From: Escherichia coli
Lineage (GTDB): Bacteria; Pseudomonadota; Gammaproteobacteria; Enterobacterales; Enterobacteriaceae
DNA: 60,030 nucleotides
Assembly (NCBI RefSeq): GCF_003334785.1
Contig: NZ_QOWV01000021.1
Strand: one strand, 5' to 3'
Shown piece after piece: positions 6,228-28,453 of this stretch. How positions within the stretch are numbered: the stretch's first letter is position 1; each line of letters opens with the position of its first letter. The position numbers and the translations under genes are program-made. The notes beneath the pieces were generated by a model, which worked only from the letters and a program-made list of their open reading frames with translations, was not told the DNA's origin and searched no databases.

Positions 6228-9200
6228 TTATTTCCGTACCCGATGTCGGTGCAGCCACATCAGCTTATACGCCGCCGGGATAATAAACAGCGACAGCAAA
6301 GGTGCGGTGATCATGCCGCCAATCATCGGTGCGGCAATCCGGCTCATCACCTCTGAACCAGCCCCCGTTCCCCACAGAATCGGCAGCAGACCGGCGATAA
6401 TCACCGCCACCGTCATCGCTTTCGGGCGCACGCGCAGTACCGCGCCGTGATACAACGCCTCATCCAGCTTCTGCTCACTGAATGTTTGCGGATTATTCAA
6501 CGACGGCTCGGCCTCTATGGCGTGACGTAAATACATCAGCATCACCACGCCAAATTCGGCGGCGACCCCGGCGAGGGCGATAAAGCCAGTGCCCGTCGCC
6601 ACGGAAAGATGAAAGCCCATCCACCACAGCAACCAGATGCCGCCCACCAGCGCAAACGGTACGCTGCTGATAATCAGCAACGCTTCGCCCACCCGACGGA
6701 ACGCCAGATACAACAGCACGAAGATGATCATCAGCGTCATCGGCACCATGAGTTTCAGCTTATGGTTGGCGCGCTCCAGCAACTCGAACTGCCCGGAAAA
6801 CGCCACGCTGGTGCCTGGTTTTAACTGCACTTTTTCAGCTATCGCTTTTTGCAAATCGTGAACCACCGACACCATGTCACGATCGCGGGCATCGATATAA
6901 ATCCAGCTCGTCGGGCGCGCATTCTCGGTTTTCAGCATCGACGGTCCGGTAGAGACTTTAACGTCGGCCACGTCTGCCAGGGTGATTTGCTGCTTCATCG
7001 GCGTCAGGATCGGCAACTGGCGCAGTGCCTGCGGACTATCGCGCCAGCTTTGCGGATAACGCAGATTAATTGGATAACGGGCAATCCCTTCCACCGTTTC
7101 GCCAACCATCGCCCCGCCCACCGCAGAAGTCACAAACAACTGCACATCCGCCACCGTCATACCGTAACGTGCGGCTTTTTCACGGTTAATCTCAACGTTG
7201 ATATAGCGCCCACCTTCCAGCCGCTCGGCAAGCGCAGAAGCTACGCCTGGCACCGTTCGTGCCACTTCTTCAATTTGCTCCGCCATCGCGTCGATATCCG
7301 CCAGCACAGTGCCGGAAACTTTAATGCCGATGGGGCTTTTAATGCCGGTTGAGAGCATATCGATACGGTTACGAATTGGCGGCACCCACAGATTCGCCAG
7401 CCCCGGCAGACGCACGGTGTTATCCAGTTCCTCAATGATTTTGTCCATCGTCATGCCTGGCCGCCACTGCTCCTGCGGCTTAAGCTGGATGGTCGTTTCT
7501 ACCATCTCCAGCGGAGCAGAATCGGTGGCGGTTTCCGCTTTCCCGGTTTTGCCAAATACCCGCGCCACTTCAGGTACGCTCATAATTAGCTTGTCGGTTT
7601 TTTGCAGCATACTCGCCGCCTCTGCTGCGGAAATCCCCGGCAGCGTCGATGGCATATACAACAAGTCGCCTTCATTGATCTGCGGTAAAAATTCCCCGCC
7701 AACTTTATTGAGCGGCCAGAGAACCGTCAGCACCGAAAGCGCTGCCACCAACAGCGTGGTTTTCGGCCAGTGCAGTACTTTCAGCAATAGAGGATGATAA
7801 ACACGAATCAAAAAGCGATTGAGCGGGTTACTGCTTTCCGGCGGAATTTTGCCACGGATCCAGTAGCCCATCAGGATCGGGATCACTACGATCGCCAGCA
7901 GCGCCGCGCCCGCCATCGCATAGGTTTTAGTGAACGCCAGCGGGCCAAACAGACGCCCTTCCTGCCCTTCCAGGGTGAAGATCGGGATAAACGACAACGT
8001 GATAATCAGCAGACTGATAAACAACGCCGGACCCACTTCAACAGACGCATCGGTGATCACCTGCCAGCGCGTTTTATTATCCAGCGTGGCGTCAGGATGC
8101 TGGTGCTGCCACTCTTCCAGCCGTTTATGCGCATTCTCGATCATGACGATAGCAGCATCGACCATCGCCCCGACGGCAATCGCAATGCCACCCAACGACA
8201 TAATATTGGCATTCAGTCCCTGGAAGTGCATGACAATAAAAGCAATACACAACCCCAGCGGCAACGAAATAATCGCCACCAGCGCCGAGCGCACATGCCA
8301 GAGAAACAGCGCACAGACTACCGCCACCACAATAAACTCTTCCAGCAACTTGCCGCTGAGGTTGTCGATGGCGCGGTCAATGAGCTGGCTGCGATCGTAT
8401 GTTGTAACTATCTCCACGCCTTCCGGCAGACTACTTTTCAGCGTTTCCAGTTTGTCCTTCACGGCGGCGATCACTTCACGGGCGTTTTTGCCGGAGCGCA
8501 GGATCACCACCCCGCCTGCCACTTCGCCTTCGCCGTTCAGTTCGGCAATGCCCCGGCGCATTTCCGGTCCAATCTGGACCTTCGCAACATCACGCAGATA
8601 AACAGGCACGCCATTTTCACTGGCTTTTAAAACGATGTGATTAAAGTCGTCGAGCGTTTGCAGATAGCCGCTGGCGCGCACCATATATTCCGCTTCCGCC
8701 AGTTCGATCGACGAACCGCCCGCTTCCTGGTTTGAAGCATCCAGCGCGCTTTTTACTTCGGCTAGACTGATGCCATACTGTGCCAGGCGCTGAGGATCGA
8801 TAACCACCTGATACTCTTTCACCACACCGCCCACCGACGATACTTCCGCAACGTCAGGGATGGTTTTTAGCTCATATTTGAGAAACCAGTCCTGCAATGA
8901 GCGTAAATCGGCCAGATCGTGCTTACCGCTGCGATCCACCAGTGCATATTCATAGATCCAGCCAACACCCGTGGCATCTGGCCCCAGCTCGGCGCTGACT
9001 CCCGCAGGCAGCTTACCCTGTACCTGGTTGAGGTATTCCAGCACCCGCGAACGCGCCCAGTACGGATCGGTACCATCTTCGAAAATGACATACACATAAG
9101 AGTCGCCAAACTGCGAGAAACCACGCACAGTCTTCGCGCCAGGCACCGACAACATGGTGGTGGTTAGCGGATAAGTCACCTGATTTTCAACGATTTGCGG

Positions 9201-21051: not shown

Positions 21052-21813
21052 ATGCAATTGAGCAGCAGTGAACCTTGCGTGGTGATCCTGACCGAAAAAG
21101 AGGTAGAGGTAAGCGTCAATAACCATGCTACGTTTACCCTTCCGAAAAACTACCTGGCCGCCTTCGCGTGCAACAATAACGTCATTGAACTCTCAACGTT
21201 AAATCACGTATTAATCACCCACATCAACCGTAACATCATCAACGATTATCTGTTGTTTTTAAATAAGAACTTAACCTGTGTAAAGCCCTGGTCGCGGCTG
21301 GCAACCCCGGTTATCGCTTGTCATAGCCGTACACCGGAAGTGTTCCGGCTAGCCGCCAACCACAGCAAGCAGCAACCCAGCAGACCCTGCGAAGCGGAGT
21401 TGACGCGCGCATTGCTTTTTACCGTATTGTCTAACTTTCTTGAGCAATCGCGGTTTATTGCCCTACTGATGTATATCTTACGCAGCAGCGTCCGCGACAG
21501 CGTCTGCCGCATTATTCAAAGCGATATTCAGCATTACTGGAATCTGCGAATTGTCGCCAGTTCGCTATGTTTAAGCCCCAGCCTGCTCAAAAAGAAATTA
21601 AAAAACGAAAATACCAGCTATAGCCAGATTGTCACAGAGTGTCGTATGCGTTACGCCGTACAGATGTTATTGATGGATAACAAAAATATCACTCAGGTGG
21701 CGCAATTATGTGGCTATAGCAGCACGTCGTACTTTATCTCTGTTTTTAAGGCGTTTTACGGCCTGACACCGTTGAATTATCTCGCCAAACAGCGACAAAA
21801 AGTGATGTGGTGA
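21052..21813 (+). CDS. envY: AraC-family transcriptional regulator
   Basis: 253 aa, C-terminal AraC HTH (YSSTSYFISVFKAFYGLTPLNY); visibly AT-rich gene. Confidence 0.85.
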   Translation: MQLSSSEPCVVILTEKEVEVSVNNHATFTLPKNYLAAFACNNNVIELSTLNHVLITHINRNIINDYLLFLNKNLTCVKPWSRLATPVIACHSRTPEVFRLAANHSKQQPSRPCEAELTRALLFTVLSNFLEQSRFIALLMYILRSSVRDSVCRIIQSDIQHYWNLRIVASSLCLSPSLLKKKLKNENTSYSQIVTECRMRYAVQMLLMDNKNITQVAQLCGYSSTSYFISVFKAFYGLTPLNYLAKQRQKVMW

Positions 21814-21858
21814 AGGGCAAAGCGGAAACGGATAAGACGGGCATAAATGAGGAAGAAA

Positions 21859-21935
21859 TGGCGCGCCCTGCAGGATTCGAACCTGCGGCCCACGACTTAG
21901 AAGGTCGTTGCTCTATCCAACTGAGCTAAGGGCGC
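21859..21935 (-). tRNA. argU: tRNA-Arg (anticodon UCU, reads AGA)
   Basis: Reverse complement gives GCGCCCTTAGCTCAGTTGGATAGAGCAACGACCTTCTAAGTCGTGGGCCGCAGGTTCGAATCCTGCAGGGCGCGCCA: cloverleaf-compatible, anticodon loop CTTCTAA, T-arm GGTTCGAATCC, encoded CCA. Confidence 0.95.
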
Positions 21936-22177
21936 GTTGATACCGCAATGCGGTGTAATCGCGTGAATTATACGGTCAACCCTTGCTGAGTCAATGGCTT
22001 TTGATCTGGTTGCTGAACAAGTGAACGACCGCGTCTGATTTTCTGATTTATTTCGCTATAGCGGCAAACAAACGCACACCGCTGCGCGTCTGAATCAAGA
22101 AAACCCGTATTTTCATGTATCAAAGTACAATTTCCCGACCTAACGGAAAATTGTCCGCTCCTATGAGACTGGTAACT

Positions 22178-22810
22178 ATGAAACCAACGTCGGTGATCAT
22201 TATGGATACTCATCCTATCATCAGAATGTCTATTGAAGTTCTGTTGCAAAAAAACAGTGAATTGCAGATTGTCCTGAAAACGGATGATTATCGCATAACC
22301 ATCGATTATCTCCGAACCCGTCCTGTTGATTTAATCATTATGGATATAGACTTGCCCGGAACAGACGGTTTTACCTTCCTGAAAAGGATCAAACAAATCC
22401 AGAGCACAGTGAAAGTGTTATTTTTATCATCGAAATCAGAATGCTTTTATGCTGGCAGAGCGATACAAGCTGGTGCTAACGGTTTTGTCAGTAAATGCAA
22501 TGATCAGAATGATATTTTTCATGCCGTTCAGATGATCCTCTCCGGATACACGTTTTTTCCCAGCGAAACGCTTAACTATATAAAAAGCAATAAATGTAGT
22601 ACGAATAGTTCAACGGTCACTGTGCTATCTAATCGTGAAGTGACCATATTACGTTATCTGGTTAGCGGATTATCTAATAAAGAAATTGCCGATAAGTTAT
22701 TACTTAGCAATAAAACAGTTAGTGCGCATAAATCTAATATTTATGGCAAGCTAGGTTTGCATTCAATTGTAGAGCTTATCGACTACGCCAAATTATACGA
22801 ATTAATATAA
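22178..22810 (+). CDS. fimZ: LuxR/FixJ-family response regulator of fimbrial expression
   Basis: Track ORF 22115..22810 trimmed to ATG 22178 (MKPTSVIIMDTHPIIRMSIEVLLQ..., 210 aa); receiver domain plus C-terminal LuxR HTH; contains AGA/AGG/ATA rare codons. Confidence 0.88.
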   Translation: MKPTSVIIMDTHPIIRMSIEVLLQKNSELQIVLKTDDYRITIDYLRTRPVDLIIMDIDLPGTDGFTFLKRIKQIQSTVKVLFLSSKSECFYAGRAIQAGANGFVSKCNDQNDIFHAVQMILSGYTFFPSETLNYIKSNKCSTNSSTVTVLSNREVTILRYLVSGLSNKEIADKLLLSNKTVSAHKSNIYGKLGLHSIVELIDYAKLYELI

Positions 22811-22812
22811 TA

Positions 22813-23328
22813 TTAATTATAATTGATCATAAATATCGCATCCGCTTTCGCCACACCTGGCCGAACACCGCTGGCTAACGCTCGATAATTGGCAAAAAAG
22901 TTTAGTGTGACATTGCCATTTGCATCTACTTCCTCAGTCGGGCTCGCCTCCCCCAGTGCGAGCCGGGAGCGATCGCTATTACGTAATTCGATGGCGACGG
23001 TTTGTGCCATTGCGGGATCATCCAGAGCCAGCAGGTTGGTATCGGATGCCGGCGTTCCCGTAAATAAAATCGCAACTGAACCCGGAGGACATCCCTCCAG
23101 CCGCAGGCTAAAAGGGACGAGTGCCGTGGTATCGCCAGCGTTCAGTAGTTGTGTCGTAGGCCATCTGCCTAAATCTACCGTCTTATCAATATCCGCTGTG
23201 TTTACGGTACAGGAGAAATCAACAACGTTACCGTGCAAATTGATATTAATCGTTCCTAAAGGGTCAACTGCCCATCCACTGGAACTCCACAGTAGCCCGC
23301 AGAAACAGCTAAAGAGTACTCTTCTCAT
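22813..23328 (-). CDS. sfmF: minor fimbrial subunit (FimF-like)
   Basis: Track ORF 22813..23523 overlaps sfmH; trimmed to ATG 23328 (MRRVLFSCFCGLLWSSSGWA signal peptide, 171 aa); pilin-type C-terminus. Confidence 0.85.
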   Translation of the reverse strand: MRRVLFSCFCGLLWSSSGWAVDPLGTININLHGNVVDFSCTVNTADIDKTVDLGRWPTTQLLNAGDTTALVPFSLRLEGCPPGSVAILFTGTPASDTNLLALDDPAMAQTVAIELRNSDRSRLALGEASPTEEVDANGNVTLNFFANYRALASGVRPGVAKADAIFMINYN

Positions 23329-23338
23329 TCTCCGTACC

Positions 23339-24346
23339 TCATTGATAATCGACGCGTAAATACCCCAGCGCGCTAAACGGCCCTTCGGTCGGTTTTTGAC
23401 CGGTAATACTGATAGGCCAGGCGCGAAGTGTGACATTGGCTGCCGCAGCTGCATCCAGACGGAAAGGAATAACGCTATTGAGATCGTTAGGCGTGATCGG
23501 CGTATCGTTCTGATCGGCGACAATAAAACCTAAATCCTGATTGTCCGACACCATCGCCTGACCAGAAACGGCACTGGCTTCCAGACGCATTGTTAAATAA
23601 GCCTGCGCAGCAACATTCGTACATTTGACCGCAATGCTCTTGGTTTGCGGCATGACACCAGCAGGTCGATTACCCGGCCCTGCCGCACTAAATAACGATG
23701 CGCCGATATCACCAAAATCAAATTCAACAATCTGCCCGGCATTTAATTCGCAGTTTTGCGGTACTTCAACCCGGCCACCAAAACTAATGGTATAAACAGG
23801 TGTAACCAACGGATCGTAAGGCGTTGATGTCACATACACGGTAAACATCACCTGTCTGGGGATCTCCACCATGTTAATAAAGGGACGAATAACCTTTAAA
23901 CGAAATATTAAACGAGAATCCATCACCCCGAATGGAAGGTTTTGCGAAACGTTAGGATCTGTTCCCATCCGAATATAATTTTGCGGGGGGAACTGAATAT
24001 CCATAACACTATCAACCAGACTCATCGCACCTAATAGATAATCATTTAATTGCATATATTTATAATTATCGATAGTTTCCTGAACAATAAAGTTGGTGAC
24101 ATAACTACGGTATGTATAATTCACCAGCGTGCCGGGTGGACAAATTGCTGAGACACCTACCCAGCCGGATTTTTCCGGTAAAACAACAATCTGCCCTGGC
24201 TGGTTATTGGTGCTATTAAAGATATTTGAGAGATCATAGTGTTCATCTTCTGCTACGCCAGTACTATTTGCACAAACAGTAGCCCAGGATATGTTTGCCA
24301 GACACAAACATGCCATCGCCAATAATAATCTGCAGATTATCTTCAT
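23339..24346 (-). CDS. sfmH: fimbrial adhesin-like subunit (FimH-like)
   Basis: 335 aa with signal peptide and C-terminal pilin domain; position after usher; exact start uncertain. Confidence 0.82.
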   Translation of the reverse strand: MKIICRLLLAMACLCLANISWATVCANSTGVAEDEHYDLSNIFNSTNNQPGQIVVLPEKSGWVGVSAICPPGTLVNYTYRSYVTNFIVQETIDNYKYMQLNDYLLGAMSLVDSVMDIQFPPQNYIRMGTDPNVSQNLPFGVMDSRLIFRLKVIRPFINMVEIPRQVMFTVYVTSTPYDPLVTPVYTISFGGRVEVPQNCELNAGQIVEFDFGDIGASLFSAAGPGNRPAGVMPQTKSIAVKCTNVAAQAYLTMRLEASAVSGQAMVSDNQDLGFIVADQNDTPITPNDLNSVIPFRLDAAAAANVTLRAWPISITGQKPTEGPFSALGYLRVDYQ

Positions 24347-24358
24347 TGATAATTTCCT

Positions 24359-26968
24359 TTATGAGCCAGGATGTGTGCAAACTGCCGAAATAACAGTGAC
24401 GGCTTGCTGTAAGCTTTGCTTCGGCAATACATAGTGCGCAATGCAGCGTGAGTTCGCGCCGTCTCCCCACTGAACCAGTAATTCACCAGACAATGGCGCA
24501 CCACTTAAATAAACTTGCCCGTCATCACCCACCATACTGGTTATTCCGGTACTGTTTTCCCGTACCAGTGATCCAAACGGCACCGGTTTTCCGCCCTGGG
24601 TAACGGTAATGAGCGCCCGCACGCCTATGCGGGTATCAAAATTGGCACGAACCAACGCGCCTTGCGTCGGCACAACGCTGCTAATATTTTTTTCAACATC
24701 GATGGAATTCCCCATCGTATTGGTATCAAGCGCGATACGGTTATACCGATAAACCGTGGCATACGGCATCACCGCATAGCCGCGCCAGTCGGTTAAAATG
24801 CCAGTTTGATTTTCAATGCGTACACCGCCTGCGCCAGGCGCTTTAATCAAAACATTGGTATCCCCTAAAGGCTGGCTCAGCGTTATGCCATTTTCATGCC
24901 CGACCACACCGCCAGACAGCTGCCAGTTAACGTCATGTTGATCGCGGTCGTAGTTATACCCGACCCCCAGCGTACCGTAAGCGGCCTGCCAGTTTGCCGT
25001 GGCGCTGCCCGTATACCCATTATTCGAGGTATCACCCTGGCTTACGTGATAACTCAGGTTGTGGCCTTCCAGTAAGGTCCCACCTACACCTGCCAGCCAG
25101 CTATTTTGCCCGTTGCTGTTACGGTTGGCGTTAAAGGAGGCATAAGCGCGGTCGAGCGCATTTTCCCGGGTGTAGCGACGTTTGGTCAGAACATTGAAAG
25201 GCACTGAAACATTAAGTCCGACAATACATTCGTTATCGGGGATCCCTACAGATTCATTCCACGAAAATGAGAGCGAATAACTGATGCCAACCCAGCTGCT
25301 GGTATACCCCACCTGATACCACGTATCTGAATCCGATGTATTCCAGTATTTTTGATGGGTACCAGAGATATAAAGCGAGCCAAAGTCATTAAGTGATTGT
25401 GAAATATTTAACTGCAAACGGTCTTTACGGCTAAAGCGTAAATTGTGGTAATTCACGATTATCGGTTCATCGCGATGCTCACCGTCGTAATCGTAATCAT
25501 ATTCGTACCCCTCCATTCGACGATACGCAACATCATCAAGGGTATAAAAACCTTGTGTCGAATAGCGGTAACCCATTAACTGAAAATTGGTGCCGAAGGT
25601 GTTCATCGATTTCGCATAGAGGAAGCGAATAGAATCCCCCTCATGACGACTATCGTCGGCTAACTGACTGCGCGCATGGGTCACATCCAGCGACACTGCG
25701 CCCCAGTTCCCGAGGTTGCGCCCCAGCCCTAATAAAAAGGCGGTGTAATTGGCAGATAATTGCGTCCCGCCGTAGGCAGTAAATTCCTGTGGTAAACCGC
25801 CGAGTACCGTGCCCTGAAAAAAGAAAGGCGATGATTGCTGACTATTACCGCTACGAAAATCGCCCCCCGTCAGGTCAAATTTGAAACGCCCTTCGCGTTG
25901 TAAAATTGGCACTGTTGAATACGGAATAGTGTAATTCTGCTGATTGCCATCGCGCTCGTCGATGGTGACGTCCAGATCGCCATTTGAAGATGTCGGGTGC
26001 AAATCTGTAATTTCAAAAGCGCCGGGGGAAACATAGCTTTGATAGATAATAAAACCATTTTGCCGAATCGTTAGCTGGGCCGCCGTACGGGCAATCCCAC
26101 GTACTGTTGGGGCAAACCCTTGCTGGCTATCAGGATACATATTATCGGAAGAGTAAAGCCGTACACCACGAAATCCAACACCATCGAAAATATCACTTCC
26201 TGTATTGCCGTCTCCCATTACCAGTTCACTTTTCAGCGGAATAATGGCGCGCTGTACCCAGGTGCCAATATTATTCCACTGTTCTGAATGATACCCATTT
26301 CCGCGAAAATAGTTCCAGGAACCATTGTTGCGTAAACGCCACGGGCCAATATTAATCCCGCTGAGCTCACTAAAAAAATAGCTATCGTTACCATTACCTC
26401 TGTTACCAGTGAAATTATAATTCAGGAGTAAAGCAGGAATACCTTCATCCCACTCTTCAGGCGGAATGTAACCGTGAGCGCTACTCAACAACGCTATCTG
26501 AGGAATAGTGATGTTCAGGCGCATCGCTGCAAAATCAAAGTTAATTGTGGCATCAGGTACAGCTTTCAGTAAATTGATGCATTTATTATTTTGCTGCTGG
26601 GCTAACTCGGGAAATGCACTGCTATTAAGGCCAATTCGTTCAAGGAGTACCTGGTTAAAACAGGGCATTAACCCACCTGATTTATCACCTGTATTTTCTG
26701 TTGTCGATTCAAATACGATATCCTGTGAACCAATGAACTCATCATTACGCCAGAGATCCACCCGATACACGCCCGCAGGTTGATGATTACCTCTCTCAAA
26801 GCGCGATAAATCAGCAACGGATGTGCCATTCTCTAATAAAAATGCCGGGTTGAAATAACTTTCCGCATAGCTTAAAAAGGAGGGTAAAATGGCAAGAGAT
26901 GAATAACAAATTCCGGCCAGACACCAGGTATACCTCTGCGGAATATCCGTAGTAGTGGGTATTTTCAT
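24359..26968 (-). CDS. sfmD: fimbrial outer-membrane usher
   Basis: 869 aa usher-family protein; exact start codon uncertain within a few codons. Confidence 0.9.
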
Positions 26969-26998
26969 AATTAGCTCTGATATTGTCAGATGATTCGG

Positions 26999-27691
26999 TT
27001 AGTTTAAGTTCACTTCTCTGACCGGGGTTACTGAACCATAATCATTAACGGTCTGAAATTTCAGCTTTCCCTGCACTCCTGAGGGTAAGGGAATTTGTGA
27101 ATTAACTCTGGGTGCAGCCATAGCATTCCCCAACTTTTGGCTGCCCACTTGTAAGTTAACCAGGGTGACATAAAAAGGTGATGGATTATGAACATTGATA
27201 TAGTTACCGGATCGCGAAAACTTGAGTGTGTCCGGCGCTTCTGCGGGTAATTCTTGTAATTGAATTGGACGGAGAAATAACTTCATGCGCGATAAAATCG
27301 CCAGTTGCAAAACATTCCTGCCGTTCAATGCATTTTTATCTACCGAAGGGATCGTCTTAACATTCATCCAGAACAGAGACTCACGATCTGCCGCCAGCGG
27401 TGGACCGGTGTAAATAATACGCAAAGTATTTTCGCTTTTGGGTTCACTAACAAATAGTGGCGGTGTAATGATGAATGACTTTTCTTTTACACCGCTGCTG
27501 TTTTCAATCCACGAATTGACCAGAAAACGCTCATTGGTATGGCTATTTCTAATCCATACCGCAGTCTGTTTAGCATCAGCGGGATAAATAATACGCGTGG
27601 CACCTAATGCGATCCCTCCGGCAGCATGGGCGCTGGCCGAAATGATTAAATAAAATATAATGAGCATCAATAACTTTATTTTAGTCATCAT
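26999..27691 (-). CDS. sfmC: periplasmic fimbrial chaperone (PapD-like)
   Basis: 230 aa, signal peptide, chaperone fold motifs. Confidence 0.9.
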
Positions 27692-27910
27692 AGTTAATAC
27701 GCCTTGTGTATTCCTGACGGCAAAAATAAGAAATATAAAGAAATGATTGCTTTGGTTTCTTACAACACATCATTCCCTTTTCATTTAATAAAGCGGCATG
27801 ATACAAAGTGAACATGATTTCGATTTACATTGCCACCATACCGCTTCAGACAACCGGTACATTACTTTGTTATAAGACGTGATATATAATTCAAAACAAC
27901 GTGGTTTTGA

Positions 27911-28453
27911 TTATTCGTATCTCATAATAAAAGTCGCGTCAGCATTTGCTTGCCCTGCTGATGCACTTGTACCGGTGCCTTTATAACGTGCAGAAAAATG
28001 AAGAACGTTGGTCCCGGGGATCAAGTTCTGGTTGGTTGAGAAGCTATTCCCATCAGGTTTGAGAATTGCGGATGTATTATCAAGTATTTCAATACCGACA
28101 CCCGTTGCTGTTGTTGTATTGGTACTGGATGCAATGGCCAATAAATTATCATTGATTGCATCAGCCTGACCAGAAAATGCAACGGCAGCATTAGCGGCAA
28201 CAACAGGATCGCAGTCGTTCAACTGAATGGTGAATGGAATTAATGCAGAGGTATTACCAACAGCATTGAAAATATCGGTACGATATTGACCGAGTGTGAC
28301 AACTTGGTCTGCCGAGTCAGTATTCACTGAACAGGCAGCATTCACCAGTTCGCCTTCAAAGTGAATTGTACCGCCATCTACAACGGCAGCATAACTACCC
28401 GTAGCGGCGAATAGTGCGGCAGCCAGCGCAGACGAAATAAATCTTAATTTCAT
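27911..28453 (-). CDS. sfmA: major type-1-like fimbrial subunit
   Basis: Track ORF trimmed to ATG 28453 ([22 protein letters not shown] signal peptide; 180 aa); AAGGA Shine-Dalgarno upstream. Confidence 0.88.

Follow-up and report, generated by a model that had tools for sequence, protein, structure and literature searches.

Rare arginine codons of Escherichia coli fimZ beside the tRNA gene argU: a probable outcome of inherited synteny and base composition

The fimbrial regulator gene fimZ of Escherichia coli carries AGA and AGG codons and has as its neighbour argU, the gene of a tRNA-Arg(UCU), which raises the question of whether the two form a control device. From this linkage, the initial annotation of the DNA studied here had suggested that expression of the sfm fimbriae may be gated by argU availability, following the example of Salmonella. 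The example itself was correct. In Salmonella, the tRNA-Arg(UCU) encoded by fimU controls the translation of the regulator FimY and is needed for it (PMC11316696, PMC6527747 and PMC2408971, citing Swenson 1994 and Tinker and Clegg 2001), and the relationship between fimU and argU has also been published (Swenson et al., 1994, as cited in PMC2408971). The codons of fimZ, the gene order at this locus and the bearing of both on the proposal were studied in a stretch of 60,030 nucleotides of an E. coli genome (assembly GCF_003334785.1, contig NZ_QOWV01000021.1), which is called the window below.

The argU and fimZ genes and their surroundings

The gene order in this region is cus operon, nfrB, nfrA, ybcH, envY, argU, fimZ, sfmFHDCA and folD (Table 1). 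ARAGORN identified a single tRNA gene in the whole 60-kb window, namely argU, a tRNA-Arg with the anticodon tct, which was also matched by Rfam (RF00005, tRNA; 72 bits). To our knowledge, argU is the only tRNA with the anticodon UCU, and the reading of AGA throughout the cell needs it. The 5' end of argU and the ATG of fimZ are separated by 242 bp and the genes are divergent; the identities and coordinates of both genes and the distance of about 240 bp given in the initial annotation were correct. The argU sequence shows no differences among this E. coli, E. albertii and an sfm-less E. coli, and differs at 3 of 77 positions from the tRNA gene located at the fimU position in Salmonella. Together with its upstream block, it shares 82% identity over 180 bp with the Salmonella sequence and has the same flanks, which identifies it as the fimU orthologue. 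Inside this block, which blastn searches showed to be kept in Salmonella, Citrobacter and Kosakonia, there is a sigma-70 promoter-like site that, judging from its sequence, would drive argU. In strain MG1655 argU is essential, and its natural promoter acted as if it were tightly regulated in complementation tests (PMC11480407).

Table 1. Features of the argU-fimZ region, with positions in the window
Feature	Position	Strand	Details
envY, AraC-family regulator	21052-21813	plus	abuts the 3' side of argU
argU, tRNA-Arg(UCU)	21859-21935	minus	77 nt including encoded CCA; ARAGORN anticodon tct, position 35
argU upstream block	21936-22028		78-84% identity including the tRNA; blastn against Salmonella, C. 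koseri, C. freundii and Kosakonia
argU sigma-70 promoter-like site	21967-21994	minus	TTGACT, 16-nt spacer, TATAAT; 11 of 12 consensus matches
Escherichia-specific spacer	22029-22173		145 bp; elsewhere fimW, EAL gene, fimY and fimZ promoter region (about 1.9-3.1 kb)
fimZ, NarL/FixJ-type response regulator	22178-22810	plus	210 aa, GC 36.7%; RefSeq annotation
fimZ codon 16, AGA	22223-22225	plus	AGR in 12 of 13 genera
fimZ codon 70, AGG	22385-22387	plus	AGR in 8 of the 12 genera with Arg here
fimZ codon 94, AGA	22457-22459	plus	AGR in 6 of 13 genera
sfmF, sfmH, sfmD, sfmC, sfmA, chaperone-usher genes	22813-28453	minus	ORFs, RefSeq names, NCBIfam; convergent with fimZ

The FimZ protein matched the NCBIfam equivalog NF007403 with 447.1 bits (cut-off 271) over residues 1-210 of 210. 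The Pfam domains precomputed for the identical protein are a receiver (PF00072) and a GerE/LuxR helix-turn-helix (PF00196), and the phospho-acceptor Asp56 as well as Ser84 and Lys106 are all present in its sequence. The gene is convergent with the last gene of a Salmonella-type fimAICDHF chaperone-usher cluster, and this layout is repeated in 12 other genera. An ORF of 231 aa starting at 22115, which would add one extra AGA, was considered as fimZ and ruled out. The start at 22178, which is that of RefSeq, is the real one because DNA homology among the orthologues begins at 22174, four bases before this ATG. When the 242-bp gap was scanned for a fimZ promoter, the plus strand gave no match resembling a sigma-70 site, and the Rfam search of the gap between argU and fimZ gave no RNA element besides the tRNA and one sub-threshold antisense artefact.

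Two further characteristics of FimZ were observed. At residue 11 (codon 22208-22210), E. coli and E. albertii have Thr and the 11 other genera have Glu, the motif being MDTHP in Escherichia and MDEHP elsewhere. This residue belongs to the acidic pocket of the receiver domain, and the phosphorylation chemistry of Escherichia FimZ may thus differ from that of the other genera. In addition, the FimZ proteins of E. coli and E. albertii were unusually divergent, with 80-81% amino-acid identity and half of the codons at conserved residues being different.

Concerning the 3' side of argU, envY abuts the tRNA gene because the prophage attachment site located at its 3' end (21850-21860) is empty in this genome, in which no DLP12-type prophage was present. 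The K-12 argU-DLP12 junction (Kisiela et al., 2013; PMC3604780) displays an identical succession of sfm operon, fimZ and tRNA-Arg, but prophage-related insertions are placed there just downstream of the tRNA. Unlike in the sfm-less strain AREA_504, no ompT gene is located between envY and argU. Of 5426 complete E. coli genomes, 2433 have an unbroken envY-argU-fimZ stretch; in many of the remaining ones the match breaks at position 21857 of the window, and in the two strains examined, EC19 and FDAARGOS_1291, intD is found at this break point of argU.

As to the structural genes, sfmH (23339-24316) is named 'type 1 fimbria D-mannose specific adhesin FimH' by RefSeq and NCBIfam (712 bits). [quoted passage not shown] The usher gene sfmD (24359-26968) has 869 codons here as against 867 in strain 298, a strain that otherwise shows no difference from the window over the 2.7-kb argU-fimZ query; a YDYDYD stretch in the sfmD product of the window may be the site of this length difference.

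Arginine codons of fimZ and base composition

Codons were counted from ORF-based gene calls across the window, and its 42 core genes, comprising 15,110 codons, were used as the reference set. The 210-codon frame of fimZ contains two AGA, one AGG, six ATA and two CTA codons, in agreement with the two AGA, one AGG and several ATA and CTA codons reported in the initial annotation. ATA and CTA are decoded by tRNAs other than argU and, therefore, have no bearing on it. AGA or AGG (AGR) represent three of the eight arginine codons of fimZ, which corresponds to 14.3 AGR per 1000 codons and 37.5% of the arginine codons, whereas the core genes have 1.85 per 1000 codons and 3.4%, respectively. The rate of fimZ is about 8 times that of the core genes in the window, and the binomial probability of this enrichment is 0.007 per codon and 0.002 per arginine codon.

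However, the enrichment disappeared when the composition of the gene was taken into account. From the base frequencies of fimZ itself, an AGR share of 0.48 is expected, equivalent to 3.85 of 8 arginine codons (P = 0.83 for at least the three observed). Likewise, when AGR share was regressed on GC with a binomial model of the remaining genes in the window, the share predicted at the GC of fimZ was 0.55-0.58, equivalent to 4.4-4.6 of 8 codons (P = 0.91-0.93). Thus, with three AGR codons observed and 3.85-4.6 expected, fimZ has no rare-codon excess beyond its composition. The outcome of a comparison of AGA and AGG counts depends on the reference chosen, since fimZ is enriched with respect to the core genes of the window but not with respect to its own composition or to the GC regression. 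Across the window, GC and AGR share were inversely related (Spearman -0.45, P = 0.0009). The sfm structural genes are likewise rich in AGR (13 of 83 arginine codons), while envY, which adjoins argU on the side away from fimZ, has 1 AGR among 14. Comparable or greater AGR use is thus met with in the neighbouring sfm genes and in other AT-rich genes of the window. The rare codons of fimZ are real, but they are a generic signature of AT-rich accessory DNA and a by-product of composition.

A rare-codon signal far above that of fimZ was noticed at another place in the window. The Rhs-associated ORFs of the rhsD/ybbC region (57774-59714, minus strand) are AT-rich, with a GC content of 28-45%, have AGR in 50-78% of their arginine codons and are also heavy in ATA.

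The conservation of codon 16 among genera deserves separate consideration. Twelve of the 13 genera use AGA or AGG for Arg16, the exception being Dryocola with CGC, despite the fact that synonymous sites are near saturation, as about 50-65% of the codons for conserved residues differ between almost any two genera. Nevertheless, the control site Arg46 is encoded by CGN in 13 of 13 genera. A change between the AGR and CGN classes requires a path through CGA or CGG. As class constancy was seen in both directions, with AGR at site 16 and CGN at site 46, it may be a matter of inertia. The constancy of AGR16 may reflect either codon-class inertia or selection of a slow codon close to the 5' end, and we regard it as a lead, not as evidence. 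Under the second alternative, AGR16 would make FimZ synthesis sensitive to the supply of tRNA-Arg(UCU) in the whole family and would be the only tRNA checkpoint of Sfm remaining in Escherichia, which seems to us most improbable. The fimZ orthologues carry 2-5 AGR codons both where the tRNA gene is adjacent and where it is not; their number is 2-5 in the former (mean 3.7) and 2-3 in the latter (mean 2.25), a difference that is confounded with GC and phylogeny.

Gene order at the fimZ locus in Escherichia and other genera

The fimZ loci of 13 genera were gathered through FimZ protein homologues and their contigs. A scan of contigs with the FimZ protein alone was dominated by generic matches to LuxR helix-turn-helix domains, and the only true orthologue that it gave was that of E. 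albertii. In 9 of the 13 genera sampled (E. coli, E. albertii, Salmonella, Citrobacter koseri, C. freundii, Kosakonia, Lelliottia, Huaxiibacter and Scandinavium), the regulatory end of the cluster is flanked by a tRNA-Arg(tct) gene that is always oriented the same way. At the opposite end, folD adjoins the cluster in all eight tRNA-flanked loci that reach it, the contig of E. albertii ending inside the usher gene. In the other four (Cedecea, Enterobacter sp., Buttiauxella and Dryocola) the cluster is elsewhere on the chromosome, with no tRNA gene alongside. The adjacency of argU and fimZ is, then, an inherited and conserved synteny, and the synteny of fim and sfm with a flanking tRNA-Arg is already in print (PMC3604780).

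What distinguishes Escherichia is the short distance between both genes. A gene of the size of fimY lies between the tRNA position and fimZ in 11 of 11 non-Escherichia loci, usually accompanied by an EAL-domain gene and fimW, and the distance from the tRNA to fimZ in these loci is 1.9-3.1 kb. The identities of Salmonella FimY and FimW were upheld by NCBIfam. Homology of E. coli to the non-Escherichia loci is limited to the tRNA with 93 bp upstream of it (up to 22028) and to the fimZ coding sequence (from 22174). In E. coli fimZ is found next to argU because Escherichia alone is devoid of fimW, the EAL gene and fimY. The 145-bp spacer left between both homologous segments gave no blastn homology outside Escherichia and has 76% identity to that of E. 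albertii, and tblastn searches of the spacer and of the whole window for remnants of FimY, FimW and the EAL protein yielded only noise (E > 0.1). The distribution among genera suggests that Escherichia has lost the block from fimY to fimW.

The spacer showed no homology to the fimZ promoter region of Salmonella. This observation, together with the lack of a sigma-70-like site on its plus strand, fits the reported absence of natural expression of Sfm fimbriae (PMC3604780). The spacer also contains a short direct repeat, GCGTCTGA, with copies starting at 22030 and 22086.

A classical island targeted to a tRNA gene was also considered as the nature of the sfm cluster and rejected, as the cluster is on the 5' (promoter) side of argU and integrases and prophages are on its 3' side.

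Within the species, all but one of 5426 complete E. coli genomes (5425) carried argU, while fimZ (at least 80% coverage) was present in 4174 of them (about 77%) and 1131 (about 21%) had no fimZ match whatsoever. This distribution agrees with the absence of sfm reported for phylogroup B2 (PMC3604780). In AREA_504, argU is 271 bp from folD, and the gap between them keeps a fimZ remnant of about 60 bp (7217-7275), which comprises codons 53-72 and aligns to 22334-22394 of the window. The local score of this alignment was 47, as against a mean of 24.8 and a maximum of 38 in 200 shuffles. The remnant indicates that the sfm-fimZ cluster was once present and was deleted in that lineage. In this pair, argU is the housekeeping gene of universal occurrence and its neighbour fimZ is dispensable.

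FimZ, FimY and the supply of tRNA-Arg(UCU)

The E. coli locus was compared with the fim region of Salmonella (fimZ, fimY, stm0551, fimW and fimU), which is the same orthologous locus beside folD. The FimZ proteins share about 71% identity. In both cases the tRNA gene adjoins a fimbrial cluster, but Salmonella has fimY, stm0551 and fimW, all three of which are missing in E. coli, and the tRNA is 2668 bp from fimZ in Salmonella and 242 bp in E. coli. Salmonella fimY has AGG7, AGA9 and AGA14, matching the literature. A cluster of this type, within the first 14 codons or so, is absent from fimZ, where AGA16 is single and the next AGR is codon 70. In the absence of fimU, FimY and fimbriation are reported to return once the first three rare codons of fimY are exchanged (Tinker and Clegg 2001, as cited in PMC11316696). 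Salmonella fimZ keeps AGA at codons 16, 94 and 97, the first two being those of E. coli. Since recoding fimY was reportedly enough for the rescue, these fimZ codons are evidently not limiting for fimbriation in Salmonella, although this is indirect.

The AGR codons at the beginning of fimY vary among genera, being at positions 7, 9 and 14 in Salmonella, 9 and 14 in C. koseri, 7 in Kosakonia and 2 in Cedecea, and C. freundii fimY has none within the first 14 codons. The fimY orthologues are located at 7675-8397 in locus L082, 7676-8398 in L083, 7691-8413 in L088, 7671-8387 in L086 and 7707-8435 in L084.

Both the codons of fimZ and their possible relation with argU have been described before. 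Garcia-Contreras et al. (2008; PMC2408971) tabulated the rare codons of E. coli fimZ (AGA, AGG, six ATA, CTA and CCC), with the genome average as baseline, whereas the baseline here is a composition-matched expectation. They also found Hha enrichment near argU and fimZ, which were noted as neighbours, and a 3- to 5-fold decrease of argU tRNA upon Hha overproduction. A plasmid carrying argU, ileY, leuW and proL relieved the repression of type 1 fimbriation by Hha, and the supply of rare tRNAs was proposed to limit the translation of fimbrial proteins in E. coli, FimZ included. These findings indicate that fimbriae can be influenced by the availability of rare tRNAs. That model concerns the same genes, but it was scored on type 1 (fim) fimbriae, not on Sfm, and its rescue relied on a four-tRNA plasmid with fimbriation, not FimZ protein, as the readout. 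A comparable case from 1997, cited in PMC2408971 and PMC11316696, is that of a minor tRNA limiting the translation of a fimbrial regulator. The tRNA, the codon and the regulator are different ones, the tRNA gene is not adjacent and, unlike the dependence of FimZ on argU, that case is experimentally supported.

From these precedents, it could be thought that the level of charged tRNA-Arg(UCU) sets a limit to FimZ synthesis and hence to the transcription of sfm, with AGA16 as the main point of action, so that a drop in argU due to Hha/H-NS repression or slow growth would lead to poor FimZ synthesis and turn the fimbriae off. In favour of this are the three AGR codons among the 210 of fimZ, which include AGA16, and the persistence of AGR at that site in 12 of 13 genera in spite of near-saturated synonymous divergence, as well as the repression of argU by Hha, the recovery of type 1 fimbriation with extra rare tRNAs (PMC2408971) and the precedent of Salmonella FimY (PMC11316696, PMC6527747). 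However, fimZ shows no AGR excess over composition, its AGR codons are single and non-tandem, unlike the three that Salmonella fimY carries among its first 14, and the CGN constancy of codon 46 indicates that class constancy can be inertia. Moreover, a Salmonella fimU mutant is rescued when only fimY is recoded, in spite of the AGA codons at 16, 94 and 97 of its fimZ (PMC11316696 for the rescue), AGR codons persist in genera with a non-adjacent tRNA gene, and the E. coli rescue took four tRNAs together and was followed on type 1, not Sfm, fimbriae (PMC2408971). Taking both sides into account, we consider that such a limitation is unlikely.

The influence could also run in the opposite direction. 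The AT-rich fimZ/sfm island would nucleate silencing by H-NS/Hha, which would extend over some 200 bp to the promoter of the divergent argU. In this way the neighbourhood would tune argU, and indirectly every accessory and prophage gene rich in AGA, instead of argU tuning fimZ. The AT-richness of fimZ and the spacer (GC 0.37-0.44), the divergent arrangement around a common 242-bp gap with the argU promoter-like site at 21967-21994, the Hha enrichment near argU and fimZ with the Hha-dependent drop in argU tRNA (PMC2408971), and the seemingly tight regulation of the natural argU promoter (PMC11480407) are all compatible with it. Against it, the argU promoter block is also kept where fimW is the adjoining gene and in sfm-less E. 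coli, and thus the promoter works in several contexts. In addition, the approximately 21% of complete E. coli genomes without a fimZ match apparently manage argU. This reading appears even less probable to us than the limitation of FimZ by argU.

By contrast with both, inherited synteny together with compositional codon bias probably explains the locus, the dependence of fimZ on argU being only that generic to any AGA-containing gene. The two genes would be neighbours by descent. The order folD, fim structural genes, fimZ, fimY, (EAL gene), fimW and tRNA-Arg(UCU) is common to Salmonella, Citrobacter, Kosakonia, Lelliottia, Huaxiibacter and Scandinavium, with Escherichia being without the block from fimY to fimW. 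At the present locus, which is the regulatory end of the Salmonella-like fimbrial (sfm) cluster, argU is read leftward, presumably from its near-consensus promoter, and fimZ rightward, with the product of fimZ presumably acting as a response-regulator-type activator of the fimbrial promoter. The AGA, AGG, ATA and CTA codons of fimZ would mirror the AT-rich, island-like composition of the gene and not a dedicated control device, and the tRNA-dependent switch of Salmonella works on FimY, the one protein with a demonstrated dependence on the tRNA, which is missing in E. coli. We infer that FimZ is not under any special gating by argU. The suggestion that argU gates sfm expression, drawn in the initial annotation from the linkage, is a weak one that found no support in the present analyses, in view of the AT-rich origin of the codons, the inherited synteny, the absence of FimY, the same AGA16 and AGA94 in Salmonella fimZ and the AGR codons kept by fimZ orthologues regardless of tRNA adjacency. 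It would apply equally to whichever accessory gene is AT-rich. The observation and the hypothesis were both in print already, and the fimZ-argU pair is an ordinary one.

On the present evidence, the value of examining fimZ and argU is mostly negative. If it were true, gating by argU would tie a cryptic fimbrial system of E. coli to translational capacity and to Hha/H-NS silencing, and it would extend the fimU-FimY paradigm of Salmonella to a species without FimY. As it stands, the locus illustrates that rare codons beside their cognate tRNA gene can stem from AT-rich composition and inherited gene order. Since these two factors can create such pairs, scans for them need composition-matched nulls and synteny controls first.
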